Positions 18,450 to 37,633 of a stretch of 64,000 nucleotides of DNA are shown one piece after another. The stretch lies in assembly GCA_965242925.1 (NCBI GenBank), contig CBDEUM010000024.1, forward strand, positions 1 through 64,000, given 5' to 3'. Both the position numbers and the translations under genes were made by a program. Source of the stretch: Roseibacillus sp. (GTDB lineage: Bacteria; Verrucomicrobiota; Verrucomicrobiia; Verrucomicrobiales; Akkermansiaceae). Below the pieces are notes generated by a model, which saw only the letters and a list, made by a program, of their open reading frames with translations, was not told where the DNA came from and searched no databases. How positions within the stretch are numbered: the first letter of the stretch is position 1; each line of letters starts with the position of its first letter.

Positions 18450-18549
18450 GCGGGGTCAGGCCGGGAGTTCCCGCATCCGTGTTTGACACCCTGTGGGCGA
18501 TTCAGGGAAGATATCCGGGACGTGGGTCGATCACGACCCGGCTCTCCGT

Positions 18550-18777
18550 ATGAAAAAGCACTCCCTCGTCTTCCTGGCTGTCTTTGTCATTTTGGCCGTT
18601 CTGCACCAGGACGTCTGGAACTGGGACAGCTCCAAACTTGTCTTTGGCTTCATGCCCGTCGGGCTTGCCTATCATGCGGCCTACTCAGTGATGGCCGCGA
18701 TTTTCTGGGGGATTGTGGTCAAGGTGGCATGGCCGGATGACTTGGAAGAGTGGGCCGAGGGAGGAGAGGGACACTAA
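18550..18777 (+). CDS. small membrane protein, DUF3311-like partner of sodium:solute symporter
   Basis: Two hydrophobic helices, LHQDVWNW...FGFMP motif, directly upstream of an SSS gene. Confidence 0.75.
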   Translation: MKKHSLVFLAVFVILAVLHQDVWNWDSSKLVFGFMPVGLAYHAAYSVMAAIFWGIVVKVAWPDDLEEWAEGGEGH

Positions 18778-18797
18778 TCACGGCACCCTGAAGAATA

Positions 18798-20489: not shown

Positions 20490-20632
20490 AGGCGGGAATT
20501 GTTTCAGAGCGGCGATCAGGGATCAATCTAGTCCACGGATTCAAAGTAATAGCGGGGCAGTGGGATCGTGGGACTTGCGGGATTTGCAGAAAGAGGTAGG
20601 GATTAGCCCCGTCCCTTGGGGACACAATTGAC

Positions 20633-21703
20633 ATGAGCTGTGATCTGAACGTGGAAGAGGCCCGCGCGGCGCTGGACGAGCGCGTCCGCGAAAGCATGAA
20701 GTGGCACTTTTCGCCCGAAACCGGTTGCCCCTACTGGCTTGACCGGGCTGCTGGTCTCGGGTTCGACCCCATCGCGGAGGTGACCTGCTTCGCCGACATG
20801 CAGAAGTTCCCGAACTTTGACGACGAAGTGCTGCGGAAGGAGGATCCCGCCCGGTTCATTCCGAAGGCCTACGAAGGCCAGCCCTACAACGTATTCGAAA
20901 CCGGGGGGACAACCGGGATGCCCAAGCAGCGGATCGGCTGGGAAGACTACAAGACCGACTACTCGGAGTTCAGCGATCATTATGCGGCCGACTTCTTTCC
21001 ACAGGGGGGCAACTGGCTGATGGTAGGGCCCACGGGACCGCGAAGATTGAGACTCTCGATTGAGCATCTTGCCAATCGCCGGGGCGGCGCCTGCTACTTT
21101 ATTGATCTCGATCCCCGCTGGGTGAAGCGTCTGATATCGGACGGGGAATATGCCATGGCCCGCAAGTACCAGGAGCACGTCATCGACCAGGCCGTCACCA
21201 TTATCAGGCACCGGAATATCCAGTGTCTTTTCACCACGCCCAAGCTCCTCGAGAGTCTTGCGGAGCGCATGTCCCTGGTGAATGCCGGTATCAAAGGGGT
21301 CTTCGCGGGAGGGACCACCATGACGCCGCAGTACGTGCGTTTTATCGAAGAGGAGGTGCTGGAGGGGAGAATCAATTACGCCCCAACCTACGGGAACACC
21401 CTGATGGGGCTTGCGATCAGCCGGAAGCGGGAACCCGGGGAATACAGCCTGACCTACTATGCGCCCCAACCGCGGGCCGTTCTGCGGATCGTTGACCCGG
21501 ATGACGCCACTAGGGATGTGGAATACGGTGAGTATGGACGGGTCGAGTTGACCACCATGACGAAGGAATTCTTCGTGCCGCGCTTCCTTGAGCGGGATGA
21601 AGCCATTCGTCGCGAGCCCTGCGGGGAATTTCCGTGGGATGGGGTAGGCGATGTGCGACCCTTCCAGAGTGGGACAAAGCAGGTGATCGAGGGGGTCTAT
21701 TAA
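20633..21703 (+). CDS. EhpF/GriC-like atypical adenylate-forming enzyme (carboxylate-activating subunit)
   Basis: WHFSPETGCPYW, ETGGTTG.PK P-loop, TYGNTL, ERD, C-terminal VIEGVY. At 356 aa it lacks the ANL C-terminal domain. Confidence 0.75.
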   Translation: MSCDLNVEEARAALDERVRESMKWHFSPETGCPYWLDRAAGLGFDPIAEVTCFADMQKFPNFDDEVLRKEDPARFIPKAYEGQPYNVFETGGTTGMPKQRIGWEDYKTDYSEFSDHYAADFFPQGGNWLMVGPTGPRRLRLSIEHLANRRGGACYFIDLDPRWVKRLISDGEYAMARKYQEHVIDQAVTIIRHRNIQCLFTTPKLLESLAERMSLVNAGIKGVFAGGTTMTPQYVRFIEEEVLEGRINYAPTYGNTLMGLAISRKREPGEYSLTYYAPQPRAVLRIVDPDDATRDVEYGEYGRVELTTMTKEFFVPRFLERDEAIRREPCGEFPWDGVGDVRPFQSGTKQVIEGVY

Positions 21704-21804
21704 TGAGACCAGCCCCGGGGAGGAGAACCCTGAACCCGGACCGGAACAATGAATTGGCAGAGTAATTTTTCTACCCGAAACGCGCGGACGTTTTGCTGCT
21801 TGCG

Positions 21805-23241
21805 ATGAGTGACGAGATCCACATTCCCATCCTGCGCCTGGGCGAGGAGTACCGCAGTCTCGATACCGTGGAACTGGAAGCGGGGACGGACGGGAAGATC
21901 TTCACGCACACCGCCAATCCGGGACTGATCAGGCGGGATCTCCTCGGAATTGAAAAGTCGCAGACGGCGCTCAATGCCATCCCGTCCGACACCCTGGCCG
22001 GCTACTGCGAACAGGCGGCGGAACTTTTCCTGAATGAGGAATTGCCGGTGGGGGATGGAACGCAGGGGCCGCAAGATTATGTCGAGGCGCTTTCCGCCCT
22101 GACGAAACTGCCTCATACCCTAGTGCGCATGAACATGGGGAAGATTCATGCCGCCATGTCCCAGATCCGGACCGTGATCGGAGGGCTGACCCGCAACCTT
22201 CCCCTTGAGCTGTTTGACCGGGGACTCTCTTCCCTCGGGGAACTGGAGGTAAACTACTATCCGGTCACGGAGGCTTTGGGGGTATCCCTTCCCAGCAACG
22301 CCCCGGCGGTCAACTCGCTCTGGCTCCCGGCTCCCGTTCTCAAGATCCCTGTTCTCCTCAAGCCCGGCCGGGAGGACCCCTTCACCCCATTACGGATCGT
22401 GCAGGCCCTCATTGCGGCAGGATTTCCGAAGGAGGCCTTTGGCTTTTATCCCACCACCCACGAAGGCGGGGATACCATTCTCATGTGCTGCGGGCGAGGC
22501 ATTGCCTTCGGCAGCGATGCCACAGTGCAAAAATATGCCGGCTTTCCCAGTATCCAGGTGCACGGCACGGGACGAAGCAAAGTGCTCCTCGGGGCGGACT
22601 ACGCTGACAAGTGGGAGGACCATGCCAGGACCTTGGTAGAGTCCATTTCCGCGAATGGGGGCCGTAGTTGCATTAACACCTCCGCGATCCTGGTCCCCTC
22701 CGGCCGGGAGGAGCTGGCGGATGCCATCGCAAGGCAACTCGCCGTCATTGAGCCCCTCCCCCGCGACCATGAGGAGGCCCTTCTCTGCGGGTTCTCCAAC
22801 ACCGAGTGGGCGGGCTCCATCAATGATCTCATCGATCAACACCTCAAGGTGGAGGGGGCCGAGGATGTGACGGCTCGTTACCGTAGCGGCTCGCGGCTGG
22901 TCGAGATGCACGGGCAGACCTACCTGCGACCGACCCTGGTTTCCTGCGCCGATTCCGGGCATCCGCTCGCCAACACGGAGTTCATGTTTCCCTTTGCGAG
23001 TGTTTCGGAGATTCCGCAGGAGCGAATGCTCGATGAGATAGGGGAAACCCTGGTGGTTTCGGCCTGGACCGAGGATTCAGACTGGATCCGCCAACTCATG
23101 AATTCGCCCGACATCGAACGCTTGAATATTGGACCATTCCCGACCAACCGGGTACAGTGGGAGCAGCCCCATGAGGGCAATCTGTTTGAGTTCCTGTATC
23201 GCCGCCGGGCGATCCAGGGAAATCTTGCGGCAGTGAGCTGA
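21805..23241 (+). CDS. aldehyde dehydrogenase superfamily, GriD/EhpG/LuxC-like acyl reductase
   Basis: LPSNAP, LKPG, FGS, NGGRSC (catalytic Cys), TEFMFP. HGTGRSK replaces ELGGK. Confidence 0.78.
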   Translation: MSDEIHIPILRLGEEYRSLDTVELEAGTDGKIFTHTANPGLIRRDLLGIEKSQTALNAIPSDTLAGYCEQAAELFLNEELPVGDGTQGPQDYVEALSALTKLPHTLVRMNMGKIHAAMSQIRTVIGGLTRNLPLELFDRGLSSLGELEVNYYPVTEALGVSLPSNAPAVNSLWLPAPVLKIPVLLKPGREDPFTPLRIVQALIAAGFPKEAFGFYPTTHEGGDTILMCCGRGIAFGSDATVQKYAGFPSIQVHGTGRSKVLLGADYADKWEDHARTLVESISANGGRSCINTSAILVPSGREELADAIARQLAVIEPLPRDHEEALLCGFSNTEWAGSINDLIDQHLKVEGAEDVTARYRSGSRLVEMHGQTYLRPTLVSCADSGHPLANTEFMFPFASVSEIPQERMLDEIGETLVVSAWTEDSDWIRQLMNSPDIERLNIGPFPTNRVQWEQPHEGNLFEFLYRRRAIQGNLAAVS

Positions 23242-23248
23242 ATTAGAA

Positions 23249-24412
23249 ATGGACCCTTTCACGACCAGACCCAGCCCGCGGCTGGTGGGTGGACCAGGCG
23301 CTCTCGCGGAGTTGCCCGCTTGTATCCGGGAGAGCGGAGGGAAAAATGTGCTGATCGTAACGGATCCCGGGATCATGGCGGCGGGTCATGTTGCACGTGC
23401 CACTGCCATGCTTGCGGAGGCGGGGATCGACTTCACCGTTTACGACGACACTAGTGAGAATCCGGAGGAGCGCGATATTGTCGCCGCCTGTGCATTTGCC
23501 CGTGGGGTGGAGGTCGACTGTTTTGTCGGCCTCGGAGGCGGCAGCAGCATGGATACGGCCAAAGGCTGCAACTTTCTTCTTACCAACGGGGGGACCATGA
23601 GCGATTACAAGGGCTACGCCCTGGCCCGAAGCCCCTTGCTCCCCTTCGTGGCAGTTCCCACCACCGCAGGAACGGGGAGTGAGTGTCAGAGCTACGCGGT
23701 GATCAGCCGCGACCAGTCACATGAGAAGATGGCTTGTGGCGATCCCGGGGCCCTGGCGTCGGTCGCCATTCTGGACCCGGAGCTCACCGCCTCCATGCCC
23801 CACCAGGTTGCGGTCCTGACAGCTCTTGATGCCCTCGCACACTCCCTTGAGACGGCGGTATGCACGCGGCGCAATCCGTTCTCCTCTGCATTTTCCCGGG
23901 AGGCCTTCCTGCACATCGCCTCCGCCATCGAGCCGATCCTGGCGGGCAATGCTACCAGGCAGGACCGCAGTGAGATGTTGCTGGGAGCGTCCTTCTCCGG
24001 GCTCGCTATTGAGAACAGCATGCTGGGAGCGGCCCACGCTTCAGCCAACCCGCTTACGGCCCGGTTTGGTCTTGCGCACGGGCATGCGGTTGCCCTCATG
24101 CTTCCGCATGTCATACGATATAACCACGAAGAATCCGCTGCCCGGGACACGTATGATCACTATGGAGGACTTCTTTCCCGCCGCGGCTACGCAGAAGTCC
24201 CGGTTACCCAGTGGGTTGAGGGGTTGCTGGGCCTTGCGGCCCTGCCTTCCCTGGGGGAAGTCGGGGTGGACCCGCGCATTTTTCCCGAGTTGGCAGAGGA
24301 CGCAACCAGGCAGTGGACGGGACAATTCAATCCCCGGGCCATGACTGCGGAAGGATTTGTGCTACTCTATGAGCGCGCGATGGGTGCAGCGTCAACCCCG
24401 AGGGCACTATGA
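23249..24412 (+). CDS. iron-containing (family III) alcohol dehydrogenase
   Basis: GLGGGSSMD.AK, PTTAGTGSE, DALAHSLE, GAAH, AHG. Confidence 0.92.
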   Translation: MDPFTTRPSPRLVGGPGALAELPACIRESGGKNVLIVTDPGIMAAGHVARATAMLAEAGIDFTVYDDTSENPEERDIVAACAFARGVEVDCFVGLGGGSSMDTAKGCNFLLTNGGTMSDYKGYALARSPLLPFVAVPTTAGTGSECQSYAVISRDQSHEKMACGDPGALASVAILDPELTASMPHQVAVLTALDALAHSLETAVCTRRNPFSSAFSREAFLHIASAIEPILAGNATRQDRSEMLLGASFSGLAIENSMLGAAHASANPLTARFGLAHGHAVALMLPHVIRYNHEESAARDTYDHYGGLLSRRGYAEVPVTQWVEGLLGLAALPSLGEVGVDPRIFPELAEDATRQWTGQFNPRAMTAEGFVLLYERAMGAASTPRAL

Positions 24413-25569
24413 AGAACTCGTTATCAGGGACTCTCGCCATCTGGACCTTTCTGGTCCTGCTGGGGGTGACCATGGGAAATGGAGCGCCCGTAGAGAACAA
24501 GGCTGCAGCCGTGACGAAAAGCTGGACCATCCCGCGAGGCGGCAATGCCCTGCAGGGCCGGGTGGCGGATGCGGTTCCCCGCAAGCCCAGGGTCAAGTGG
24601 GATGTCGTCCTGGATGGACCGGTCATCGGCGATGCGGCCATTGCGGATGGAATGGTCTACATCGGGACGGTGATGGGAACCTTTTATGCCATCAACTTCG
24701 AAACCGGAAAGGCCCGCTGGAAATTCGAGACGGAAGACACCATCGACGCTCCGCCTGCAGTCGGGCTGGGCAGGGTTTTCATCGGGTCAAGCGACTGTTT
24801 CTTTTACTGTCTCGATCAGAAGACGGGAAAGGAGCTCTGGAAGTACGAGGGAGCAGACAAGTTCGTGGGTGGTGGTCTCCTGGTGCGGAGTCCCGATAAC
24901 AAGGAGGACTGGATCGTGGTCAACGGCTACGATGGGATCTGTCGCGCCCTGCGGACGAAGGACGGGAGCGAAGCATGGATCTACGAGACCGCCGCGCAGA
25001 TTAATGGGACGCCGGCACTCGTGAATGGCAAGACAGTTGTCCTTGGTGGCTGCGATGCCCTTGTGCACGTTGTCGATGTTACCAACGGGAAGGCAGTCAA
25101 TGAAGTGCAGGTGGACGCGGAGATCATCGGGACGGTGGCCACCATGGGCAGCATGGTTTACTCTGCCAATTACGGGAACCAGCTGGCAGCGGTGGACATA
25201 GAGAAGAAGAAGCCAAAGTGGATTTACGAGGACAAGGACTTCGGGTTTTACGCTGCCCCCGCCCTTAACGACGAACTGGTCTTCATTGGCTCTCGCGACA
25301 AGCATCTGCACGCCGTGAACCGGGAAAGCGGGAAACGGGCATGGCGCTTTAAAACCGGCGCGCGCATCGATGGCGGGGCCATCGTATTCCGGGATGCAGT
25401 TGTTTTTGGCTCCGGGGACGGGAGGCTGTATGCCTTGAAGCCCTCAGATGGCAGCGAGATCTGGCGGCTCGATCTGGGAGAGGGAATCGGCTCCGACCTT
25501 GCCTTCGCCAGCGGGTGTATTGTGGTGGGCGGATCGGATGGCAGCCTCTTCTGCATCGAAGGACAATGA
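24409..25569 (+). CDS. PQQ-like (BamB-like) eight-blade beta-propeller protein
   Basis: N-terminal hydrophobic leader, regular G..(R/L)W blades, ATGA overlap with the ADH stop codon. Confidence 0.85.
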   Translation: MKNSLSGTLAIWTFLVLLGVTMGNGAPVENKAAAVTKSWTIPRGGNALQGRVADAVPRKPRVKWDVVLDGPVIGDAAIADGMVYIGTVMGTFYAINFETGKARWKFETEDTIDAPPAVGLGRVFIGSSDCFFYCLDQKTGKELWKYEGADKFVGGGLLVRSPDNKEDWIVVNGYDGICRALRTKDGSEAWIYETAAQINGTPALVNGKTVVLGGCDALVHVVDVTNGKAVNEVQVDAEIIGTVATMGSMVYSANYGNQLAAVDIEKKKPKWIYEDKDFGFYAAPALNDELVFIGSRDKHLHAVNRESGKRAWRFKTGARIDGGAIVFRDAVVFGSGDGRLYALKPSDGSEIWRLDLGEGIGSDLAFASGCIVVGGSDGSLFCIEGQ

Positions 25570-25781
25570 ACCCCTCAGCGCCTGATCATTGAAATGCTGG
25601 ACAATGCTGGAAATAGAATCTTGTGGCGGATCGGGCTAGGAAGTCCTGCAGGCGAGAAAGGGTCGCTGAGGCAGCCCAGCAAGCTGCGTTATTTCAATTA
25701 CCGGGAGATCTCACTACTCTTCGATCCGGACCCCCGAGGTGATTTCAGGAGGACCAATGAGCGAACCCTATCCCCGAAGCC

Positions 25782-27107
25782 ATGAGTGATACCGCCCACC
25801 CTCCGAAAAAGAAGGCCACCCAGGCCGGCAATTACTTCATTTCCAATTATCCGCCTTTTTCCTTCTGGTCGGAAGAGCAGGGAGCAGAAGTCCTGAAGAC
25901 CTTTGAAAGGCCGCCCGCCCCGGAGACGCCCTTGGGCCTCTATCATCACATCCCCTTCTGCCGGAAGCGATGCCACTTCTGCTACTTCCGGGTCTACACT
26001 GACAAGAACGCGCAGGAGATCCGTGACTACCTTGAGCACACCATGCGTGAACTGGAGCGCTTGGCCGCCAAACCCCTTCTCAAGGGTCGCAAGCCGCACT
26101 TTATCTACTTTGGTGGAGGGACACCCTCCTACCTCTCTGCCAGCCAGCTTACGGAGTTGACCGATCGCATGAAGGCCATCCTGCCCTGGGACGAGGCGGA
26201 GGAGGTTGCCTTTGAATGTGAACCAGGCACGCTCAACCCGGGGAAGTTGTCGGCCATCAAGGAAATCGGAGTCACGCGGCTCAGCCTTGGCATCGAGAAC
26301 TTTGATGACCGCGTCCTTGAGATCAACGGGCGCGCTCATCGCAGCAAGGAAGTGTGGAGCGCCTACGAAAGGGCCCAGGCGGAAGAGTTTGAGCAGATCA
26401 ACATCGACCTCATTGCGGGGATGCTGGAGGAAACCGAGGAGAACTGGCAGAAGAATATCGAACAGGTTCTCGAGCTCAGTCCGGACAGCATCACCATTTA
26501 CCAGATGGAGATTCCCTACAACACGACCATCTACAAGGACATGAAGGAGAGCGGGGCATTGATCGCCCCGGTGGCCGACTGGGAGACCAAGCGCCGCTGG
26601 GTGAAGGAGGCCTTCGCGGAACTGGAAGCCAACGGTTATACCATCAGCTCAGGTTATACCGCGGTGAAGAATCCGGATAAAACGAAGTTCATCTACCGCG
26701 ATGCTCTCTGGGGCGGAGCCGACTTGGTTGGCCTGGGCGTGGCGTCCTTCTCCCACGTGCAGGGGGTGCACTACCAGAATCTGACCGAGATCGACGATTA
26801 TACCAAGGTTGTTGAGGCGGGGGAGATGCCCGTCAAGCGTGCCTTCCGAACCAGCGAGGAAGAGCGCATGATTCGCGAGTTCATTCTGCAGATGAAGCTT
26901 GGCCACGTTGATTCGGCCTACTTCGGGGAAAAGTTCGGGGTAAACATTCTGGAGCGTTTCGTTGTCCAGCTGGAAGAACTGAGGGAGGAAGGTCTCCTGG
27001 AGGTGGCGGAGGGCTCCATTATCCTTCACCGCGACGGACTCCTCTGTGTGGACAATCTTCTCCACGACTTCTTTCTCGAACATCATAAGACGGATCGGAT
27101 TGTGTAG
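25782..27107 (+). CDS. HemN-like (coproporphyrinogen III oxidase family) radical SAM protein
   Basis: LYHHIPFCRKRCHFC (CxxxCxxC), YFGGGTPS, RLSLG, NIDLIAG, C-terminal HemN_C-like region. Confidence 0.88.
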   Translation: MSDTAHPPKKKATQAGNYFISNYPPFSFWSEEQGAEVLKTFERPPAPETPLGLYHHIPFCRKRCHFCYFRVYTDKNAQEIRDYLEHTMRELERLAAKPLLKGRKPHFIYFGGGTPSYLSASQLTELTDRMKAILPWDEAEEVAFECEPGTLNPGKLSAIKEIGVTRLSLGIENFDDRVLEINGRAHRSKEVWSAYERAQAEEFEQINIDLIAGMLEETEENWQKNIEQVLELSPDSITIYQMEIPYNTTIYKDMKESGALIAPVADWETKRRWVKEAFAELEANGYTISSGYTAVKNPDKTKFIYRDALWGGADLVGLGVASFSHVQGVHYQNLTEIDDYTKVVEAGEMPVKRAFRTSEEERMIREFILQMKLGHVDSAYFGEKFGVNILERFVVQLEELREEGLLEVAEGSIILHRDGLLCVDNLLHDFFLEHHKTDRIV

Positions 27108-27150
27108 GTTCCAGATTTGAAATGGTAATCGGCATTCCCCCCGGGGGGGG

Positions 27151-27756
27151 GTGGCGATCTCGCACGACAGCCTTCCCCGATCACAATTTAATCAGTTCTC
27201 CGTGAATCAACTCCAGCAGTCAGCCTTTCCCGAGTTCCTGCGCGAATCGCTCTCGCGGGCCGGATTGCTGGGAGACTGGTTCTCATGGCATGAGCCCGAG
27301 GAGGTGCCGGAACCGTTCCGCGAGCTCCTCATTCATGAGATGGATATGACCTCTACCCTTGAACGGTATCACGGGGAGCAGATGATACTGGAAGTCCTGG
27401 CAGACGGTCAGGCCGACGGCTACTACTTCCGCGAGGTGATCCTGCGGGGAGGAGAAACAGGTCGGGCTGCCGAATTCGGGCTGATAGAAATCGAGGTCAG
27501 CCAGTTCCCCGAGGATCTGCACGAGGCCATTCTCTCGGGAAGAAAGCCGCTGGGCGGAATCATGAACGAGAGCGGAATGATCTATGAAAGCCAACCGCTG
27601 GGCTACTTTTCGGTTGCGCGCGGGAAGCTTCCAACGAAATTGTGTGCCCTCGGGAATGGCGATATATTCTACGGTCGCTATAACCAGCTTATGAGGGCGG
27701 ACGGCAGCTGCCTGGCCCGCATCCTCGAGATCATTCCCCGCTCCTCCGATTCATGA
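27151..27756 (+). CDS. chorismate pyruvate-lyase (UbiC/Rv2949c/DUF98)-like protein; start uncertain (27151 or 27202)
   Basis: LLIHEMDMTSTLE, REVIL and ILSG.KPLG.IM match the UbiC-fold pattern (LL....T..LE / REV.L / PLG..L). Confidence 0.6.
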   Translation: MAISHDSLPRSQFNQFSVNQLQQSAFPEFLRESLSRAGLLGDWFSWHEPEEVPEPFRELLIHEMDMTSTLERYHGEQMILEVLADGQADGYYFREVILRGGETGRAAEFGLIEIEVSQFPEDLHEAILSGRKPLGGIMNESGMIYESQPLGYFSVARGKLPTKLCALGNGDIFYGRYNQLMRADGSCLARILEIIPRSSDS

Positions 27757-29024
27757 AGATGCAAAGTGAACCCCAGTCCTGCGACGTCATCGTGGTCGGG
27801 GGCGGACCCTCCGGTTCTGCCGCGGCAGCGCTTCTGGCGGGAAAGGGGCATAAGGTCATTCTCCTCGAGAAGGAAAGGTTTCCCCGCTACCACGTGGGCG
27901 AGTCCCTCATGCCCTTCTGCTACTTCACCCTGGAGCGTCTTGGCGTCTTGGAGCAGATGGAAGAGCACGCTTTTGTGAAGAAGCACAGTGTGCAGTTCGT
28001 CACCAAGGAGGGACAGATCTCGACCCCCTTCTATTTCTTCCAGCATCTTGATCATCCGGCAGCCACCACCTGGCAGGTGGAACGGTCTGTCTTTGATGAA
28101 ATGCTCCTGCGCAATGCGGAGGAGAAGGGGGTTGAAGTCCGTGAAGAGACGCAGGTCCAGAACTTCACCTTCGACGGCGATTGTGTCACCGGGGTGGTTG
28201 CGAGGGCGAAGGATGGAGCGGACTATTCCCTCCAAGCTCCCGTGACGCTCGACTGTACCGGTCGGGAGGCGCTTTTTCTGCGCAAGAAGAAATGGCGCCG
28301 CCGCGATCCGCAGCTCAACAAGATTGCGATCTGGACCCTCTTCAAGGGGGCCAAGCGGGACGAAGGACTGGATGAAGGAGCGACTACCGTGGCTTATTTG
28401 GACGGCCGGGGTTGGTTCTGGAACATTCCGCTGCGCGATGACATCGTAAGCTCAGGGATTGTTGCGGAACGCGACTATCTCTACCGTGACACCCGTGACC
28501 TGCAGGAGATTTATGAGCGGGAGATCAAGGAGAACAGCTGGATCAAGGAGCACCTTACCACAGGTGAGCAGTTTGGCGAATACTGGGTGACCGGCGAGTA
28601 TTCCTACCGTGGCGAACAGTGTGCGGCCGATGGGCTGCTCATGGCCGGCGATGCTTTTGCGTTTCTCGATCCGGTCTTTTCTTCCGGGGTTTTTCTCGCG
28701 CTCAAGAGCGGGGAGATGGCGGCCGATGCAATCAGTGGGGCTCTGGAGGCGGGGGACGTGTCGACAGGGCAGTTCCTGGAGTATGGAGAGAAGCTCTGCC
28801 AAATGATCGAAGTCATGCGAAAACTGGTCTACGCGTTTTACGACAAGGACTTCAGCTTTGCGAAACTGATCAAGAAGCACGGGGAAATTCGCCCCATGCT
28901 CACGGACTGTCTTATCGGCGATCTTGACGGGAAGGATTACAAGCCCCTCGCGGAAGCGATGAGCGGTCTTGCCTCCCTTCCCGAACCACTCGGACACGGA
29001 CGGGTTCCTCAATCCGTTAAATAA
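27753..29024 (+). CDS. flavin-dependent halogenase-like FAD oxidoreductase
   Basis: GGGPSG, FPRYHVGES, FVKK (Lys at the halogenase catalytic position), WFWNIP (WxWxIP), GDAFAFLDPVFSSG (FxxPxxSxG). Confidence 0.75.
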   Translation: MKMQSEPQSCDVIVVGGGPSGSAAAALLAGKGHKVILLEKERFPRYHVGESLMPFCYFTLERLGVLEQMEEHAFVKKHSVQFVTKEGQISTPFYFFQHLDHPAATTWQVERSVFDEMLLRNAEEKGVEVREETQVQNFTFDGDCVTGVVARAKDGADYSLQAPVTLDCTGREALFLRKKKWRRRDPQLNKIAIWTLFKGAKRDEGLDEGATTVAYLDGRGWFWNIPLRDDIVSSGIVAERDYLYRDTRDLQEIYEREIKENSWIKEHLTTGEQFGEYWVTGEYSYRGEQCAADGLLMAGDAFAFLDPVFSSGVFLALKSGEMAADAISGALEAGDVSTGQFLEYGEKLCQMIEVMRKLVYAFYDKDFSFAKLIKKHGEIRPMLTDCLIGDLDGKDYKPLAEAMSGLASLPEPLGHGRVPQSVK

Positions 29025-29043
29025 CACCCCTTCCCCGTTCGGC

Positions 29044-30357
29044 ATGAAAGTCACCTTCCTGACTGCGGGCACGGGCAGCTATCACTGCGGGGCGTGCATG
29101 CGGGACAACACCCTGGTCACGGCCCTTCATCGGGACGGGCACCAGCTGGCGTTACTGCCGATGTACCTTCCCATGCAGTTGGACGAAGAGATCCTCCCGC
29201 AAGTACAGGAAGCGCCCATATTCTTTGGTGGGATTAATGTCTACCTGCAGCAGAAATTTTCTTTTTTCCGTCACACTCCCCGTTGGCTGGACAGTCTCTT
29301 CAATGGGGAGGGACTACTGCGATCCGCGGCCAGACGCAGCCACATGACCAGTCCACAGGAGCAGGCGGAGATGTGCCTGGCCATGCTGCAGGTGGACGAG
29401 AGCCGCCTCACCAAGGAACTCGACAAGCTCATCGACTGGCTTGAGCATCACGAGCGACCGGATTTCATCGCGCTCTCCAACGCGCTTCTCTCGGGGGTGA
29501 CGCGGGAACTCAAGAAGCGGCTGGGAGATATTCCGGTGATGGTGTTTTTCCAGGGAGAGGACACCTTTCTCGATAGTCTGCCCGAGCCCTACCGCACAAG
29601 AAGCTGGGAGGAAATGAAGGAGCGTCTCGCAGAGTGCGACATGCTCGTTGCGCCCAGCCATTTCTATGCCGGGGTGATGGGAGAGCGTCTTGGGATCCCC
29701 CTGGCGGAGATCGAGATTCTTCCCAATGGAATCAACCTGGAGGGTTACGGGGAACCCGTGGAGGACGGCCTTCAGGCCATTGGTTATCTCGCCCGCATGA
29801 GCCGTGAGAAGGGCCTTGGGGCCCTGGTGGATGCCTACCTTCTGCTGCAGGAGGGAGGCAGGTTTCCACAGTGCCGGCTCAGGATTGCTGGATCATGCAC
29901 CCCAGGAGATGAGGTGTTCGTGAAGGATCAGAAGGAGAAGATTGAGCGGGCCGGTCTTAGTGAAATGGTGGATTGGCATCCCAATCTGACGCGGGAGCAG
30001 AAGACGGAGTTTCTTCGGGGCCTCACGGTGTTCTCCGTGCCGGTGCAGTATTCCGAGGCCTTTGGACTCTACCTGATCGAAGCGATGGCGAGCGGGGTGC
30101 CGGTGGTGAATCCGGAGGGATCGGCCTTCGAGGAGATCGCCGCGGTGACCGGGGGAGGGCAGACAGTGGCCCCCGGCGATCCTTCCGCGCTGGCTCGAGG
30201 CTGGGAAGATCTCCTGGCCAACCCGGGGGAGGCGGCTGCGATGGGAGAAAGAGGTCGCCGCGGGGTGGCGGAACGGTATAGCGTCACTGCGATGAAGGAT
30301 GGCTTCCTCGAACTCGCCGGACGGGTTTGCGCCGCAGCCGGACCACGGGATTCATGA
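29044..30357 (+). CDS. glycosyltransferase family 4
   Basis: PNGI, YLARMSREKG, EAFGLYLIEAMASGVPVV. N-terminal CGAC. Confidence 0.9.
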   Translation: MKVTFLTAGTGSYHCGACMRDNTLVTALHRDGHQLALLPMYLPMQLDEEILPQVQEAPIFFGGINVYLQQKFSFFRHTPRWLDSLFNGEGLLRSAARRSHMTSPQEQAEMCLAMLQVDESRLTKELDKLIDWLEHHERPDFIALSNALLSGVTRELKKRLGDIPVMVFFQGEDTFLDSLPEPYRTRSWEEMKERLAECDMLVAPSHFYAGVMGERLGIPLAEIEILPNGINLEGYGEPVEDGLQAIGYLARMSREKGLGALVDAYLLLQEGGRFPQCRLRIAGSCTPGDEVFVKDQKEKIERAGLSEMVDWHPNLTREQKTEFLRGLTVFSVPVQYSEAFGLYLIEAMASGVPVVNPEGSAFEEIAAVTGGGQTVAPGDPSALARGWEDLLANPGEAAAMGERGRRGVAERYSVTAMKDGFLELAGRVCAAAGPRDS

Positions 30358-30803
30358 GTGACGAGAGCAAGAGCTATTCCTTTGAGTATCAGCGGCGGGT
30401 CGAATTTCACGAAACCGATCTCGCCGGGATCGTGCATTTTTCCAACTTCTACCGGTACATGGAGACCGCAGAGCACGAGTTCATGCGTAGTCTCGGCCAT
30501 CCCGTACACCGGCAGATAGCGGAGGCGGAAATCGGATGGCCGCGGGTGAGTGCCAGCTGTGAATTCCGCAAGCCTGCCCGGAACGACGACGTCCTTGTCA
30601 TCCGGGTCTCCATTGACGAGATCCGCACTCGCTCGGTTCGGTATGGGTTTCGGTTCTACCTCGATCCTGCAGATCCTCCCATTGCCACCGGGAGAGTGGC
30701 CGCGGCCTGTGTGAAGTTTGAGAACGGAGGCATCACCGCCGTCCCCATTCCCGATCAGATCCGCTCCGATCTCGAAGCCGCCCTGGCGGCGACCAAGTCC
30801 TGA
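30354..30803 (+). CDS. acyl-CoA thioesterase, 4-hydroxybenzoyl-CoA thioesterase/YbgC hotdog family
   Basis: RRVEFHETDLAGIVHFSNFYRYME; ATGA overlap with the GT4 gene. Confidence 0.9.
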   Translation: MSDESKSYSFEYQRRVEFHETDLAGIVHFSNFYRYMETAEHEFMRSLGHPVHRQIAEAEIGWPRVSASCEFRKPARNDDVLVIRVSIDEIRTRSVRYGFRFYLDPADPPIATGRVAAACVKFENGGITAVPIPDQIRSDLEAALAATKS

Positions 30804-30850
30804 TTGATCAAGTGAATGGCGCTCTTCCATCACCCCAAAAAAAGAAATCC

Positions 30851-31402
30851 ATGAACTGGCTTATTTTCGCCCTCATGACCGTGGCCTGCTGGGGCCTTTA
30901 CGGGATTTTCCTCCACGCAGGCCAAGTCGAAATGCAGGACAAGGAGCTGGGTCGGTACAAGGCGTTTCTCTTTGTGGGGATTGCCTATTTCATCACCGCG
31001 GTAGTGGCTCCTCTGGTGGTTCTCCTCGTCAAGGGTGCGGAGGGGACCTGGGCGATGCCGAGCAAGGGGATGTGGCTTTCGCTTTTTGCCGGAATCCTCG
31101 GGGCGGCAGGAGCATTCTGTGTTCTCCTTGCCATGGCGTCCGGGGCGAAAGGGGGGATGAGCCCTGCGGTGGTGGCGATCTCGGTCATGTCGATCATCTT
31201 CTGCGGGGCTCCGCTCGTCAATGCGATCGTATCGATCTGGATGGACCGGCCCGAGGGCGGCCTCGCGGCCATTCCCTGGCAATTTCTCTGCGGCATTTTG
31301 ATCGCGGCTCTCGGCGGCTTCATGGTGGTGAAATTCAAGCCTGCCGGGTCCCACGGGACCCCGCCCAGGAAGCCGGGGATTGAAGTCCCGGCGAAGGAGT
31401 AG
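30851..31402 (+). CDS. DMT/EamA-like membrane protein (single repeat)
   Basis: Five hydrophobic helices; WLIFAL.TV..WG.YG start; G...A..G C-terminal helix. Confidence 0.65.
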   Translation: MNWLIFALMTVACWGLYGIFLHAGQVEMQDKELGRYKAFLFVGIAYFITAVVAPLVVLLVKGAEGTWAMPSKGMWLSLFAGILGAAGAFCVLLAMASGAKGGMSPAVVAISVMSIIFCGAPLVNAIVSIWMDRPEGGLAAIPWQFLCGILIAALGGFMVVKFKPAGSHGTPPRKPGIEVPAKE

Positions 31403-31430
31403 TCTGGAAGGCTTCGGTCTGCCGGAGCGC

Positions 31431-32666
31431 ATGGAAGCAATGATGTCCCTGAGCGCAATCAACGATCTGTTCGGTGCCATCCTTCCCGCGAATGAATTTT
31501 ACGCGGCGAAGCTTGGAGAGAGACGCAGGGTCGAGAGCCTGGAGGAATTCAGGGAGGAGATTCCCTTCACTACCAAGGATGAACTGGCCGCAGATCACGA
31601 GGACCACCCGCCTTACGGCACGACCCTGACGTATCCGCTGGAGACCTATACCCGTTTCCACCACACGAGCGGCACACGGGGCAACCCGATGGCCTGGCTG
31701 GACGACCCCGCGGGGTGGGCGTGGATCCTGGAGTCATGGCAGTGGGTGTGGTCCAACGCGGGCACGCGTTCTGGCGACAGTGCCTTCTTTCCCTTTTCCT
31801 TCGGGCCCTTTCTCGGATTCTGGTCGGCTTTCGAGGCCGCGGCGGCGATGGGGATCCGGGCGATTCCTGGCGGGGGCCTTTCCAGCGAAGACCGGCTGAG
31901 GATGATGGCCCTGCATCGGCCGCAATTCATGGCCTGTACGCCGACCTACTCCCTGCATCTTGCATTGGTGGGGAAGGGCATGGGGCTCCCGGTGGACCGC
32001 CTGGGGGTCAAGGCCCTGGTGGTGTGTGGTGAGCCCGGCGGGAGCATCCCGGAAGTGCGGGAGCGCATCGAGGCGGAGTGGGGCGCGCGTGTGATCGATC
32101 ATCATGGGATGACAGAGACTGGTCCGGTTACCGTGAGCGATCCCGACCATCCCGACTTGCTGCGCATTTATCATTCCTCCTATCACGCCGAGGTTGTCAG
32201 CCCGGAGAGCCTTGAGCAGGTGACTCTTGGAGAGGTGGGGGAGCTGGTCCTGACCACTCTGGGGCGTTATGGGGCTCCTCTGATCCGCTACCGAACCGGA
32301 GATCTCGTCCGGCCGGTTGCCCCCGAGAAAACGGATCCTGCTCCCTTTGCGTTGCAGGGCGGAATTATTGGGCGGGCGGATGACATGGTGGTGGTGCGTG
32401 GGGTGAACATCTATCCCAGTGCGATCGAAGCGGTAGTGCGCTCAGTAGATGGAGTGGGGGAGTACCAGGTGGAAGTGGACGAGCAGGGGACGCTGCCGGA
32501 AATCAGCCTGGTGATCGAGAATCTCGGAGATGGCCGGTCTGAAGAGGCATTGGAAGCCCGACTCCGCTCTGTCTTTTCCATGCGGATTCCGGTAAGAGCA
32601 GTAGAGTTCGGCACCCTGCCGGTTTCTGAAGTGAAGGCCCAGCGCTGGAAGGTGATTAGCGAATGA
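31431..32666 (+). CDS. phenylacetate-CoA ligase (PaaK) family aryl-CoA ligase
   Basis: IPFTTK, HTSGTRG.P, TPTY, GEPG, HGMTE, RYRTGD, GRADDM..VRGVNIYP. Confidence 0.9.
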   Translation: MEAMMSLSAINDLFGAILPANEFYAAKLGERRRVESLEEFREEIPFTTKDELAADHEDHPPYGTTLTYPLETYTRFHHTSGTRGNPMAWLDDPAGWAWILESWQWVWSNAGTRSGDSAFFPFSFGPFLGFWSAFEAAAAMGIRAIPGGGLSSEDRLRMMALHRPQFMACTPTYSLHLALVGKGMGLPVDRLGVKALVVCGEPGGSIPEVRERIEAEWGARVIDHHGMTETGPVTVSDPDHPDLLRIYHSSYHAEVVSPESLEQVTLGEVGELVLTTLGRYGAPLIRYRTGDLVRPVAPEKTDPAPFALQGGIIGRADDMVVVRGVNIYPSAIEAVVRSVDGVGEYQVEVDEQGTLPEISLVIENLGDGRSEEALEARLRSVFSMRIPVRAVEFGTLPVSEVKAQRWKVISE

Positions 32667-33337
32667 TCGATGTCCAAAATGTCAGCAAGGTTTATGAGAT
32701 GCCCGGCGAGTCGCTGCGTGTACTTGATGAGGTGAGCCTGCAGGTGGGTGCGGGAGAGACCGCTGCGATAGTTGGTCCATCAGGAAGCGGAAAGACGACT
32801 TTGCTCAATCTGCTTGGAGTCCTGGACCAGCCCAGTGAGGGACGGGTCCTGATCGACGGCAGGGACGTGGCGTCGTTTGACGAGGAGCAGGCCGCCGCCT
32901 TCCGCAACCGGTCTCTTGGGTTTGTCTTTCAGCACCACCATCTGCTCCCGCAGTGTACCCTCCTGGAAAATGTCGTTCTTCCACGGTTGGCCGGGGGCTG
33001 GACGGAGGCGGAGGAGGAAACCACCGCGCGGGCCGAGGCGTTGCTGGGCGAAGTAGGCCTGCAGGACCGCCTCGCCCACTTTCCCCATCAGCTCTCGGGC
33101 GGGGAGCGGCTGCGGACGGCCCTCGCCCGGGCCCTGGTCAACGAACCGAGACTGGTCTTGGCGGACGAGCCGACAGGATCACTCGACCAGGAGACCACCG
33201 GAGTGGTAGCTGATTTGCTTGAGCAGCTTAATGCCCGGATGGGCGTGACCCTGGTGGTTGTCACCCACAATGCGGCCCTTGCGGGGCGAATGCAGGCCCA
33301 CTACGAGCTTCGCGGCGGGAAGCTGGAGAAGCAATGA
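32663..33337 (+). CDS. ABC transporter ATP-binding protein (LolD/MacB family)
   Basis: GPSGSGKTT, LSGGE, LADEPTG, VTHN. Confidence 0.95.
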   Translation: MIDVQNVSKVYEMPGESLRVLDEVSLQVGAGETAAIVGPSGSGKTTLLNLLGVLDQPSEGRVLIDGRDVASFDEEQAAAFRNRSLGFVFQHHHLLPQCTLLENVVLPRLAGGWTEAEEETTARAEALLGEVGLQDRLAHFPHQLSGGERLRTALARALVNEPRLVLADEPTGSLDQETTGVVADLLEQLNARMGVTLVVVTHNAALAGRMQAHYELRGGKLEKQ

Positions 33338-36300
33338 ATGCCCTCAAGTTCATTCGGCGTGGGATCTGGCACTACAAGTTGTCCTACCTCGGGGTAGGAG
33401 CAGGCGCGGTCCTGGGAGCCACCGTCCTGCTGGGGGCGCTGATTGCGGGCGACTCGGTGAAGGAGACCCTTCGGGAGGTGGCGCGCCAGCGGGTGGGCCA
33501 GGTCGACCAGGTCTTTGTGGCGGGGGAGGGCTTCTTCCGTGACGCTCTTGCTGCGGACGTGGCCACGGATTCCCTGCGGGCTGCGCCCATTCTGTTCCTG
33601 CGGGGCCAGCTCAATTCACCGTCCAGCGAGCGCGGATTGGGCAGGGTGCAGATTCTTGGAGTGGATGATCGGTTCTGGGGATTTTCGCCGGGCTCCGGCG
33701 AGGCGGTGGCCCTCCAGTCCCGCGAGGTGGCCGTCAATGACTACCTGGCAAACGCACTGGACCTGAAAGAGGACGACTCGGTGATCCTGCGCCTGCAGGA
33801 ACCCGGGATGTTGTCGCGCGATGCGCCGCTTTCTGGAGAAGCAGAGGACGTGATCAGCTTCCGCGCCAAGGTGCGGGCGGTATTGGGTGACGGGCAGTTC
33901 GGGCGTTTCAACCTCCGGGCCACCCAGCTTCCGGTCCCTACCGTCTTCGTTCCCCTCAGCCGATTGCAGCAGGTGGTTGATCAACCCGCGCGCGCCAACC
34001 TCCTCCTGCTGGGCTCCGGGGAGGGCGGGACGCCCTTCCGCGGCGATCTGGCGGGGCACATCCGCAGCCGGATGACTCTGGAAGACTACGGCTTCTCCCT
34101 GGTTGACGTTCCGCTGGCGGGAGCGACCGAGATCCGCTCGGCACGCATTTTCTTCGAGGCGCCGATCGTCGAAGCGGTCAGGGCCCGCTTTCCAGGGACC
34201 GTCCCGGTGACCAGTTACCTGATCAACACCTATGCGGCCAAGGGGAAGGAAACCCCCTACTCCATGGTGGCGGCGGTCCGATCGCAAGGGGCGCCCTTCC
34301 TGCCCGAGCCGTTCTCGAGGCAAGATATCGTGATCAACGACTGGCTGGCGGAGGATCTAGAAGTCGAGGTGGGAGAGGAGATCAGCCTGGTCTTTTTCAG
34401 GCTGGTGGGGGGCAACCAGCTGGAGGAGGCCACCGCCGGGTTTCGCGTACGCGGCATCGTGGCGCGGGAGGGTCTGGCAGCTGATCAGCTCTGGATGCCG
34501 GACTTCCCGGGAGTGGCGGAGGCGGAGGACGCCCAGGACTGGGCGCCAGGGCTGCCCCTTGATCTGGAGCGCATCCGACAGAAGGACGAAGACTACTGGG
34601 ATGAACATCGAGGGACCCCCAAGGCGTTCATTTCCGAGGAGCGGGGGCGTGAATTATTCGGGAATCGGTGGGGAGAGTTTACCTCCCTGCGGATTCCCTC
34701 CAGGGAGGCGCCGGGAACCGGACTGGAGAAGGAACTCCTCCCCCTTCTCAAGCCCGGGATGGCGGGTCTGCTTCTTCGCAACCTTGGCGAAGATGCGCAG
34801 GCGGCCGCCCAGTCGCCGGTCGACATAGCGGGGCTCTTCCTGAGCATGAGCGTTTTCCTGATCGTGGCTTCAGTGGCCCTTACGGCGATGCTGTTCCGCT
34901 TTAATATAGAACAACGAAACCGGGAAAGCGGATTGCTGGCGGCCCTGGGCGTGTCTGCGAAGAGGGTCCTGCGCTGGCGCCTGTTGGAAGGTCTCATTAT
35001 TGTAACGGGTGGCGGGCTCATCGGCCTCCTCCTCGCGATTGTCTACTCGACAGGGATCCTGCGCTTTCTTGCAACGATCTGGAGTGAAGGCTCGGGCGAG
35101 ACCTTCTTTGTCGTTCACCTCAACCCCGTGAGCATGGTTACCGGCCTCCTCATCTTTATCGCATTATCGATGGGCGCAATCTGGCTCACCGCGCGGAAGC
35201 AGGCCCGGAAAAGTGCGACCCTGCGCCTGGAGGCGGGAGCGGAGGAGGTGCGTCGTGGGAGTGTGCGGGTGCGCCTCCTGCTGGCCTGTGGGATTGTCAG
35301 CGTTCTCCTCGGGCTCGGATGTATCGTGGCCAGGAACGGGATGGGTCCGCAGGCGGCCTTTTTCCTTTCCGGGACGTTTTTGCTGGTGGCGGGGCTTTTG
35401 AACTACCGTGCGTGGTTGGGCTGGAATGGCGCACGGAGTCGCCGGGCCCTTTCGTCCCGCTCGTTGGCCACCCTCAACAGCGGCCGCCGTCCCACCCGTA
35501 GCCTGGTGGTGGTGGGCACCATGGCCTGCGGGGTTTTCCTGGTCATTGCGGTGACGGCCTTCCGGAAGCACGGAGGAGAAGAGTGGGCCGAAAAGTCGAG
35601 CGGAGCCGGTGGGTTCGCCTTCTGGATCGAGACCACCAGTCCAGTCAATCGCGCGGCCGATGCAAAGAAGGACCCGGACTACTTCGAGTTGGGGGATCAA
35701 CGGGGGCTGCTGGGAGAGATCCGGCCCTTTCGCATGGGAGTGGGTGACGATGCGAGCTGTTTCAATCTGAATACCGCCGCCCGGCCCCGCCTGCTGGCCA
35801 CCGATGTCGGCGCTCTGGCCGGGCGCGGGTCGTTCACCCTCAAGGCGGTGGCCGAAGGAAGGGATATCGAGAAGGGATGGGAGATTCTCCGCGAACCGGC
35901 GCACCCCCGGGTTCTGCGGGCTTTTGTCGATCAAACCACCATGATGTGGGTCCTGAAAAAGAAGGTGGGGGATCGCATCACCTATCAGGACGAGCGGGGC
36001 GTGGATTTTGAGGTCGAGATCACGGGAGCGTTGGCTGACAGCATCTTTCAGGGGAATCTGATCGTGGACGAGGCCGCTTTTCTCAGGCTGTTTCCGTCCC
36101 AGGAGGGCTACCGGCTCTTTCTGGCCGATGTTCCCGGTGATTCCGACTACGCACTTGGGGAGCTCCAGAAAGCCACCGCGGACCGTGGAAGCGTGATCAC
36201 CCTGACGCGGGAACGTCTGGAGGGCTTCCACGGCGTGGAGAACACTTACATCGCGATCTTTCACGTTCTGGGCGGTCTGGGGCTTATTCTTGGCAGCGCC

Positions 36301-36614
36301 GGGCTCGGGATTGTGACGGCCCGTAACCTCGCCGAACGGCGGGGTGAGTTCAGGGCGCTTCGAACTATTGGCATTCCTCACCGGGTGACCAGAAACGTCA
36401 TCTTCAAGGAGGTGCGGGGTTTTATCGGGTGGGCCTTTGGATTGGCCTCCTCGCTTCCCTGGTGGCCATCCTGCCCGCCCTCAACGGGGCGCCACCGGTG
36501 GGCACGTTCCTTGGACTGGGCGCAATGGTGGTTCTCATCGTCCTCAACAGCCTGTTCTGGGCCTTTGTCGGGTACGTGGTGGGCTACCGGCGGCGGGCAG
36601 GCATCGGAATGTGA
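33334..36614 (+). CDS. ABC transporter permease, duplicated MacB/FtsX type (apparent frameshift near 36440)
   Basis: Two large periplasmic domains, each followed by FtsX helices (EQRNRESGLL.ALG; ERRGEF.ALR.IG). The last two helices continue in frame 36429..36614. Confidence 0.85.
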
Positions 36615-36663
36615 GCGCGACTCCGTTCTTTCCGTCGATCGGGAGGCTTCCTAGGCTGTCCGG

Positions 36664-37570: not shown

Positions 37571-37633
37571 AAAGGGGAGCAGGGGTGACGCAGGCTCTTC
37601 CTGCGGGTGTTTGCAGGCGGTCGAACAGGGGCC

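Follow-up and report, generated by a model that had tools for sequence, protein, structure and literature searches.

The DNA analysed here (the window) is a 64,000-nucleotide (nt) stretch from the marine verrucomicrobium Roseibacillus sp. (assembly GCA_965242925.1, contig CBDEUM010000024.1), in which a gene for a small chorismate-lyase-like protein runs directly into a gene for a flavoprotein resembling flavin-dependent halogenases. The two open reading frames (ORFs) lie on the + strand at 27151..27756 (201 amino acids (aa), GTG start) and 27753..29024 (423 aa, ATG start). The junction reads ...gattcATGAagatg..., where ATG 27753-27755 overlaps TGA 27754-27756 by 4 nt, so that the ATGA overlap described in the initial annotation of this DNA is borne out by both the ORF list and the junction sequence. 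The pair belongs to an operon of fifteen same-strand (+) genes (18798-37386, from an SSF symporter through an alpha/beta hydrolase) that is probably devoted to the synthesis and export of a halogenated aromatic compound, and the two genes are best read as encoding the opening step and a later one of a larger aromatic-acid pathway. The pair consists of:

27202..27756 (open frame from GTG 27151), + strand, chorismate-lyase-fold protein (predicted fold)
27753..29024, + strand, predicted flavin-dependent halogenase of the CndH/PltA/Bmp2/FasV type (PF04820, fold and motifs)

Because full-length homologues of the small protein mostly measure 181-186 aa and their alignment starts at GTG 27202, the lyase-like gene is probably 27202-27756 (184 aa) rather than 27151-27756, and its residues are numbered from GTG 27202 throughout. 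A C/G homopolymer at 27138-27150, in the gap between the preceding HemN-like gene and the lyase gene, varies in length, the contigs of two RNA-library runs being short by 2 or 3 bases at 27142. This variable G run lies upstream of both candidate lyase starts (GTG 27151 and GTG 27202).

An AlphaFold (AF2) model of the small protein, built on a 24-sequence alignment, has a mean predicted local distance difference test (pLDDT) score of 85.7. Foldseek ranks AF1396 (Pfam DUF98) first for this model (E 2.8e-7) and E. coli chorismate lyase second (E 4.5e-5), followed by GntR/HutC effector domains. A second aligner, independent of Foldseek, gives AF1396/DUF98 (2nwi) a Z score of 16.0, with a root-mean-square deviation of 2.2 Å over 143 residues, and UbiC (1fw9) a Z score of 12.1. 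Alignment with E. coli UbiC (K-12 record) pairs the Arg of the family's YFREV motif, PLG, and GR with their UbiC counterparts, on which hhalign and MAFFT agree, and a Met-Thr position is also common to both proteins. H45, DMTST 48-52, R77, E91, PLG 116-118, GR 158-159, and E176 are invariant in 28 members from several phyla, and R77 aligns with the UbiC Arg both in a weak hhalign match (53%) and in MAFFT. We take this Arg and a Glu of UbiC to be product-binding residues. Taken together, the model and these positions indicate a chorismate-lyase fold for the small protein and make it a predicted lyase, in line with the initial description of it as chorismate-lyase-like. It is 17-22% identical to UbiC, and identities within its own family are 31-90% across phyla. 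A search of 1.84 billion representatives places the size of this family at 1855 clusters (50% identity) at E <=1e-3, 1449 at 1e-10, and 506 at 1e-30.

The flavoprotein contains GGGPSG (16-21), FVKK (74-77), GWFWNIP (220-226), and FLDPVFSSG (304-312), which are all four of the motifs named in the initial annotation, the Lys of FVKK included. K77 falls in the Lys column of CndH, and K77, GWFWxIP, and FLDPVFSSG are invariant in 62/62 sequences (the window protein and 61 orthologues); we take the Lys, WxWxIP, and FxxPxxSxG motifs to separate halogenases from oxygenases. The protein scores 111.8 bits against PF04820 (Pfam Trp_halogenase), for which the cut-off is 21. Its ten best matches among solved sequences (E 7.5e-56 to 1.7e-39) are nine halogenases (E 4.2e-41 to 7.5e-56) and 3nix, an unassigned flavoprotein that is the weakest of the ten (E 1.7e-39). 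The best reductase follows only at E 1.6e-10, with two more remote halogenases, PltM (2e-13) and 5wgv (4e-11), in the interval. An AlphaFold model of the flavoprotein (pLDDT 90.0, predicted template-modelling score 0.91) was compared by structure, with the nine solved halogenases scoring Z 37.4-49.7. The Z scores against the model are:

FasV, Z 49.7
Bmp2, Z 48.2
PltA, Z 46.8
ChlB4, Z 46.7
Mpy16, Z 46.6
3nix (unassigned), Z 46.5
CndH, Z 44.0
RadH, Z 42.5
CmlS, Z 37.4
Geranylgeranyl-reductase (GGR)-like protein, Z 35.3 (best non-halogenase)
p-Hydroxybenzoate hydroxylases (PHBH), Z about 34

Halogenases thus outscore reductases and hydroxylases in both the structure and the sequence comparison, and the earlier assignment of the protein as halogenase-like is supported by Pfam, solved-structure sequence matches, fold, and motifs. 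We consider it a halogenase-type flavin adenine dinucleotide (FAD) enzyme that groups with solved halogenases and whose activity is predicted. It is the only halogenase-like gene product of the host genome, and identities among the halogenases are 50-91% across phyla. The nearest solved halogenase relatives take carrier-tethered pyrroles and phenols. In another locus of our collection (L031, G046:C2:35700-55699), a trio of halogenase-like genes lies at 8114-9181, 9382-10626, and 10713-11753, with products 32%, 51%, and 26% identical to the window enzyme.

The pair sits in the middle of a tightly packed array, in which intergenic distances range from -31 to 212 nt. Five 4-nt overlaps occur, and besides that of the lyase and halogenase genes they are found at the Fe-ADH/propeller, GT4/thioesterase, PaaK-like/LolD, and LolD/FtsX junctions, which shows that the ATGA overlap is not peculiar to the pair. 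The other genes of the operon, named after their family and structure matches, are:

18798..20489, + strand, SSF-family sodium:solute symporter, first gene of the conserved array (PF00474, E 2.5e-30)
20633..21703, + strand, EhpF-like adenylating enzyme, of the aryl-carboxylate-activating type, ANL superfamily (PDB EhpF 3l2k/3hgu, E 6.4e-54)
21793..23241, + strand, divergent aldehyde-dehydrogenase (ALDH)-family protein (PF00171, E 8.8e-11; best PDB match KauB, E 3.8e-10)
23249..24412, + strand, iron-containing alcohol dehydrogenase (Fe-ADH; PF00465, E 1.4e-47; PF25137, E 2e-25)
24409..25569, + strand, PQQ-like/BamB-like beta-propeller with a hydrophobic N-terminus (PF13360, E 5.1e-41)
25782..27107, + strand, HemN-like radical SAM enzyme (PF04055 and HemN_C; CxxxCxxC and GGGTPS present)
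29044..30357, + strand, GT4 glycosyltransferase (PF00534, E 1.5e-26)
30354..30803 (open frame from TTG 30327), + strand, 4HBT-type hotdog thioesterase (PF13279/PF03061)
30812..31402, + strand, small membrane protein (no Pfam match at E <=0.01)
31380..32666 (likely start near 31431), + strand, PaaK-like aryl/acyl-coenzyme A (CoA) ligase (NF041878 PaaK, E 4.7e-48, below cut-off)
32663..33337, + strand, LolD/MacB-type ABC ATPase (PF00005, E 2e-35; TIGR02211, 255.5 bits, below the cut-off of 307.75)
33334..36654, + strand, large FtsX-type permease of 1106 aa (PF02687, E 5.7e-16), which follows the ATPase also in loci L113 and L114
36664..37386, + strand, alpha/beta hydrolase, last same-strand gene, 9 nt past the permease (PF20434, E 1.8e-13); its membership in the operon is uncertain

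Several of these genes keep their neighbours in other phyla. The symporter gene precedes the EhpF-like gene also in a Phycisphaeraceae locus (L114) and adjoins the array in a Planctomycetia locus (L112), and the ALDH-like gene, which occupies the position of EhpG beside EhpF, remains adjacent to the EhpF-like gene in L112-L114. The HemN-like enzyme matches PDB HemN 1olt (E 7.4e-36) and the methyltransferase NocN (E 1e-22). We rejected it as a housekeeping coproporphyrinogen oxidase, for it scores 207.9 bits against TIGR00538 (cut-off 324.95), stays below the HemN and HemW cut-offs, and has no match at E <=1e-120 in 20 relatives that lack the operon. ATG 30354 of the thioesterase gene overlaps the GT4 stop as ATGA, and the best PDB match of the thioesterase is 5wh9, titled 4-hydroxybenzoyl-CoA thioesterase (E 4.8e-20), with 1bvq matching at E 3.2e-10. 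The PaaK-like ligase matches 2-hydroxyisobutyryl-CoA synthetase (E 4.3e-47) and PaaK (E 1.3e-36) in the PDB. The cluster neighbours of the small membrane protein are unnamed Verrucomicrobiota and Planctomycetota clusters and one automatically named DMT permease, and we note as a lead that it could possibly be a half-size DMT/EamA-type permease. No P450 or methyltransferase genes are present at the locus. A carrier-protein gene is also absent from the operon, and the single PP-binding (PF00550) match of the genome lies on contig C30, not on the contig of the window (C24). Scans for promoters and terminators over 18200-38000 return nothing beyond the shuffled expectation (5 vs 4.6 and 19 vs 17.1, respectively).

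Two other identities for the gene set were considered and set aside. A QHNDH-like protein-maturation system (propeller, radical SAM enzyme, flavoenzyme, and ABC exporter), suggested by the QhpG match of the flavoprotein, would require a small substrate ORF, and none is conserved, because the gap between the propeller and HemN-like genes is 212 nt here and just 8-10 nt in close relatives. An aryl-polyene, flexirubin, or xanthomonadin-type cluster was rejected, as none of the window's 52 ORFs gave a ketosynthase or carrier-protein match.

Four marine runs from four studies yielded RNA-library contigs (>=95% identity) that match stretches of the genes from HemN-like to PaaK-like; one (27550-27985) spans the lyase/halogenase junction, and others span the GT4, thioesterase, and membrane-protein genes. 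They are consistent with transcription of the operon, and it counts against leaning on them that such contigs can contain DNA.

Elsewhere in the window, a DUF1501 gene (E 2.6e-141) lies beside a PSCyt2/PSD1 (DUF1549/DUF1553) gene at 1371-5503 on the - strand, a gene pair that is common in Planctomycetota and Verrucomicrobiota. Upstream of the operon, PQQ-like propellers at 10659-11924 (-) and 14204-16483 (+) flank a TonB-dependent receptor at 11919-14114. The ORF at 49828-50265 covers positions 2-119 of the 198 of the Ribul_P_3_epim model, and that at 53027-53398 covers 129-237 of the 237 of the TauE model; these genes may be truncated or have miscalled starts.

To follow the array across phyla, we scanned one genome per species for the gene pattern and fetched 80 loci. 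Their labels include Roseibacillus, Akkermansiaceae, Opitutales, Limisphaerales, Pedosphaera, Pirellulales, Planctomycetia, Phycisphaeraceae, Vicinamibacteria, Thermoanaerobaculia, Abditibacteriaceae, Baltobacteraceae, and Calditrichia. A few further labels look like binning errors; among them are those of L073 and L085, which read 'uncultured Bifidobacterium sp.', and the Verrucomicrobia-like gene content of these two loci makes a binning or labelling error most likely. In 61/73 loci that have at least 1400 nt downstream, the lyase gene is immediately followed by the halogenase gene, and the HemN-like gene immediately precedes the lyase gene in 64/72, showing that the pairing of lyase and halogenase is more frequent than chance. 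The NTGA 4-nt overlap recurs in 28/63 lyase/halogenase pairs, with start codons picked by a heuristic. The full gene order of the window, from the symporter to the ABC permease, is found in a Phycisphaeraceae metagenome-assembled genome (MAG; L114), and rearranged versions of the operon occur in a Planctomycetia genome (L112) and a Thermoanaerobaculia MAG (L113). A GT4 gene is present within the 4-kb flank in 35/80 loci, and a Pfam GT4 stands at the same place in L107, L108, L113, and L114. Planctomycetota carriers of the operon include L094, L095, L104, and L112. The order of the operon is thus kept across phyla. The family is sparse in a phylum-wide sample, with lyase members in at least 3 of 200 genomes (>=90% complete, at most 18 candidates scored per genome, mostly operon-free lineages). 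The earlier suggestion of a verrucomicrobial route to halogenated 4-hydroxybenzoate holds for the host, whose close homologues are labelled Roseibacillus, and fails for the operon, which is not specific to Verrucomicrobia.

We also compared 61 related genomes, which are not independent observations. The lyase, halogenase, PaaK-like, and HemN-like genes are each present in 41 of them, and these are the same 41 in every case, with halogenase presence called at E <=1e-90. The EhpF-like ligase is present in 40/61 and is absent, among the 41, only from a genome that is 70% complete (G006). A genome of the same genus as the window (G008, 93% complete) lacks all five tracked genes, and the set has a patchy presence in 4 of the 18 genera of the window's family. 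In 28/41 carriers the lyase and halogenase genes share a contig and are no more than 600 nt apart, and they are separate in the other 13. In one of the related genomes (G045), the five tracked genes lie at about 2.01, 1.09, 3.71, 4.91, and 0.01 Mb of one chromosome among unrelated housekeeping-type genes, and all five are kept. In a quick tree with 42 rows, the halogenases encoded away from the lyase gene fall within the operon-type family, where they form a clade (SH-aLRT 100) with copies from Limisphaerales-type operons; they are far from two outgroup paralogues and do not group with the clade of the window. The lyase, halogenase, HemN-like, PaaK-like, and EhpF-like genes are therefore gained and lost together, and this repeated joint presence and absence, along with their retention after dispersal, argues that they need each other.

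Natural fusions point to the chemistry that the lyase-fold protein would take part in. In a 613-aa protein (P0136) the lyase domain is followed by a PaaK-like ligase 48% identical to that of the window, and in a 324-aa protein (P0105) it is followed by a 4HBT thioesterase 40% identical to that of the window. Both have complete domains in frame, were found on 2 and 3 contigs, respectively, and are 2 among the 150 representatives listed. Such fusions connect CoA-thioester chemistry with the product of the lyase. Two more proteins, P0202 (lyase::halogenase) and P0203 (radical SAM::lyase), look fused as a result of frameshift read-through and contain scrambled stretches both between and after the domains; they confirm adjacency only, and they could mislead domain-fusion analyses.

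Based on these results, we propose, with a probability of roughly 0.55, that the operon encodes a pathway from chorismate to 4-hydroxybenzoate, through a CoA stage (PaaK-like ligase and 4HBT thioesterase) with ortho-halogenation, to tailoring and export. In the first step, the lyase-fold enzyme would split chorismate into 4-hydroxybenzoate and pyruvate. The PaaK-like ligase would form a thioester, for which CoA is proposed because no carrier protein is available. The halogenase, using FADH2 from a general reductase, O2, and halide, would halogenate the ring ortho to the hydroxyl group, on either the thioester or the free acid. The HemN-like enzyme would modify the product further, probably by C-methylation, and the 4HBT thioesterase would release the acid. 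The EhpF-like/ALDH-like pair and the Fe-ADH would then reduce the carboxylate to an aldehyde or alcohol, and GT4 would glycosylate the product, which the small permease and the ABC exporter would move out of the cell or into the envelope. Only the first of these seven steps has a set place, as the numbering of steps 2 to 7 does not fix their order. Some loci weigh against a uniform pathway: the halogenase is missing from the position after the lyase gene in 12/73 loci, the GT4 gene takes that place in L107 (Opitutus) and L108 (Abditibacteriaceae), and in three Thermoanaerobaculia-type loci the PaaK-like ligase gene directly follows the lyase gene. Because of these 12 loci, halogenation is not essential to every version of the operon.

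The alternative that survives best, which we nevertheless regard as unlikely, is that the lyase-fold protein has a different aromatic acid as its ligand or substrate, which the SSF symporter perhaps imports, and that the operon tailors, detoxifies, or recycles this acid, with the halogenase acting there. Most of the points that weigh against a chorismate lyase speak for it. Even at E 10, Pfam returns no family for the small protein, and no NCBIfam model matches it, which leaves it without sequence-level membership in the UbiC or DUF98 families, and a precomputed Pfam domain is absent in 49/49 of its close homologues. No solved structure is matched by its sequence, and a 24-homologue profile finds no solved UbiC or other lyase. 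Profile-profile alignment pairs it only weakly with UbiC, at 53% probability (E 1.3e-4), and the invariant E176 sits one column off the UbiC Glu in the MAFFT alignment. The UTRA ligand-binding domains of GntR regulators reach Z 11.6, almost as similar as UbiC (Z 12.1), and the fold alone therefore does not demonstrate catalysis. The best structural match, AF1396, has no assigned function in its entry title, and the symporter is the conserved first gene of the array. On the other hand, the Arg, PLG, and GR positions common to UbiC are invariant, and the small protein has no DNA-binding domain. The lyase domain is also fused to or adjoins an aryl-CoA-type ligase and a 4HBT thioesterase, and the title of the best solved match of the neighbouring thioesterase is 4-hydroxybenzoyl-CoA thioesterase, all of which speaks against this alternative.

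It is less probable still that the flavoprotein acts in vivo as a hydroxylase, as another oxygenase such as a maturase of the QhpG/LodB type, or as a reductase, and that the product carries no halogen. This possibility draws on matches of the flavoprotein to the QhpG (E 5e-38), geranylgeranyl-reductase (1.4e-36), and LodB (8.3e-30) models, on the close solved relative 3nix, which has no assigned activity, and on the vertical inheritance of the operon in lineages from soil and freshwater, an uncommon pattern among halogenase pathways. The CmlS equivalog NF033113 matches at E 1.6e-58, and its score of 198.6 bits is far below the cut-off of 900, which indicates that the flavoprotein is, on sequence, a relative and not an orthologue of CmlS. 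As the initial annotation had stated, no flavin reductase is visible in the window, since none of its 52 ORFs matches the reductase families; in the genome (89.9% complete), the search, confined to PF01613, returned one weak match with two stops, and no other reductase families were searched. These matches and absences count against a halogenase. They are outweighed by the invariance of the Lys, WxWxIP, and FxxPxxSxG in 62/62 sequences, by the Z scores of solved halogenases (42.5-49.7, and 37.4 for CmlS) against at most 35.3 for reductases and hydroxylases, and by the gap in E values from 1.7e-39 (3nix) to 1.6e-10 (best reductase), which holds only the halogenases PltM and 5wgv. In addition, a substrate gene of the QHNDH or LodA type was not found among the ORFs of the window.

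It is very improbable that the two genes suffice on their own to make free halogenated 4-hydroxybenzoate or phenols and have unrelated neighbours. The 4-nt overlap and tight adjacency favour such a two-gene route, and a preprint on strain 10988 (10.1101/723874) proposes just such a pair. Against it, five genes of the operon follow a single pattern of presence and absence across 61 genomes, the order from symporter to ABC permease is identical in the Phycisphaeraceae MAG, the lyase domain is fused to a ligase or thioesterase in other organisms, and the array is tightly packed throughout, with 4-nt overlaps at five junctions. The self-contained route of the bmp or baa kind that had been envisaged for the pair thus gives way to two predicted steps of a co-inherited operon of about 15 genes.

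Beyond the proposed pathway, a broader interpretation is conceivable, although we would sooner expect it to fail than to hold. Rather than sporadic secondary metabolism, halogenation would be a step of a vertically inherited, multi-phylum pathway whose complete set of genes is kept even when scattered, and its product would be a halogenated hydroxybenzyl-type glycoside, envelope component, or cofactor-like molecule of Verrucomicrobiota, Planctomycetota, and Acidobacteriota in ocean, freshwater, and soil, with the halogenase working on a CoA thioester and not on a carrier protein. If this is true, such a multi-phylum halogenation pathway would amount to a widespread biological source of organohalogens that has gone unrecognised.

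The biosynthetic clusters that contain flavin-dependent halogenases are normally patchy and strain-specific. In the window the halogenase belongs to a fixed gene set whose order is conserved across phyla and which is retained even when dispersed, a pattern that speaks for a halogenated aromatic compound of physiological importance in bacteria that are abundant but poorly cultured. Identification of the product would give a name to a new class of natural products or a new component of the envelope, would establish what the lyase-fold family does, whose roughly 1450 clusters (50% identity) have no Pfam or NCBIfam match, and would test whether such halogenases accept CoA thioesters. It would possibly explain the origin of simple bromo- and chloro-hydroxybenzyl compounds in marine and soil samples, and it might settle whether 3,5-dibromo-p-anisic acid, the sole halometabolite reported from a planctomycete, stems from this operon.

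Several components of the proposed pathway resemble known systems. E. coli UbiC and the DUF98/Rv2949c-like lyases are alike in fold and size to the small protein, and UbiC shares its Met-Thr, Arg, PLG, and GR positions, whereas the window protein is too divergent for either Pfam model (PF04345 and PF01947) and forms a separate, unannotated family. The solved 'variant B' halogenases (FasV, Bmp2, PltA, ChlB4, Mpy16, CndH, RadH, and CmlS) share the fold, the motifs, and the aligned Lys with the window enzyme at 27-33% identity, and they have the same short length without a large C-terminal lid. None is orthologous to it (best E 7.5e-56 at about 31% identity), and they sit in polyketide synthase/nonribosomal peptide synthetase (PKS/NRPS) clusters, whereas the window family is co-inherited with fixed partner genes. 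EhpF and EhpG reduce an aromatic carboxylate to the aldehyde. In the phenazine (D-alanylgriseoluteic acid) clusters, as in the window operon, an EhpF-type ligase gene (E 6.4e-54 for the window enzyme) is followed by an ALDH-family gene, while the phenazine genes themselves are absent from the operon. A table of PMC11278526 shows ehpF and ehpG side by side in phenazine clusters.

The coupling of a lyase to a halogenase has precedents as well. The chlorinated building block of ambigol, 3-chloro-4-hydroxybenzoate, is reportedly made by a module of Ab5 (lyase), Ab6 (adenylation), Ab8 (carrier protein), and Ab10 (halogenase). This module proceeds from a lyase through a 4-hydroxybenzoate thioester and CndH/PltA-type halogenation to release, a course that parallels our proposal; it has a carrier protein where the window operon has none, so that the thioester here would be with CoA, and it is said to have no counterpart to the reductive, radical SAM, glycosyl-transfer, and export genes of the window. 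In the bmp pathway of marine Pseudoalteromonas, the chorismate lyase Bmp6 and the brominase Bmp5 yield halogenated phenolics; Bmp5 is decarboxylating, has a single component, and belongs to a different lineage of flavoenzymes. The logic is the same, with a chorismate lyase feeding a flavin-dependent halogenase. Unlike Bmp5, the window halogenase is nearest to two-component halogenases, including Bmp2 (Z 48.2), and the operon has no Bmp7-type P450 and a different gene context.

BaaA/BaaB of Planctomycetales strain 10988 is closest in architecture, by which alone the two loci are compared. The mention of this pair in the initial annotation is correct: the consulted part of the preprint (bioRxiv 10.1101/723874) proposes it, genetically unverified, for 3,5-dibromo-p-anisic acid and gives BaaB as about 44% similar to Bmp5. 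As in the window, a chorismate-lyase-like gene adjoins a same-strand flavin-dependent halogenase-like gene in a bacterium of the Planctomycetes-Verrucomicrobia-Chlamydiae (PVC) group, and both loci lack a methyltransferase and a P450, as far as that text describes the baa locus. In the same part of the preprint the two genes are treated as the whole core, and the radical SAM, ligase, thioesterase, and exporter genes seen here are not mentioned. Given the Planctomycetota carriers of the operon, it is possible that BaaA/BaaB and the pair of this operon are identical. We found no published description of the operon in the literature searched, which did not cover the journal version on strain 10988 or the ambigol papers. 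On comparison with these systems, the lyase-plus-halogenase logic appears as the known part (bmp, baa, and ambigol), and its setting in a carrier-free, co-inherited, multi-phylum operon of about 15 genes appears as the new one.

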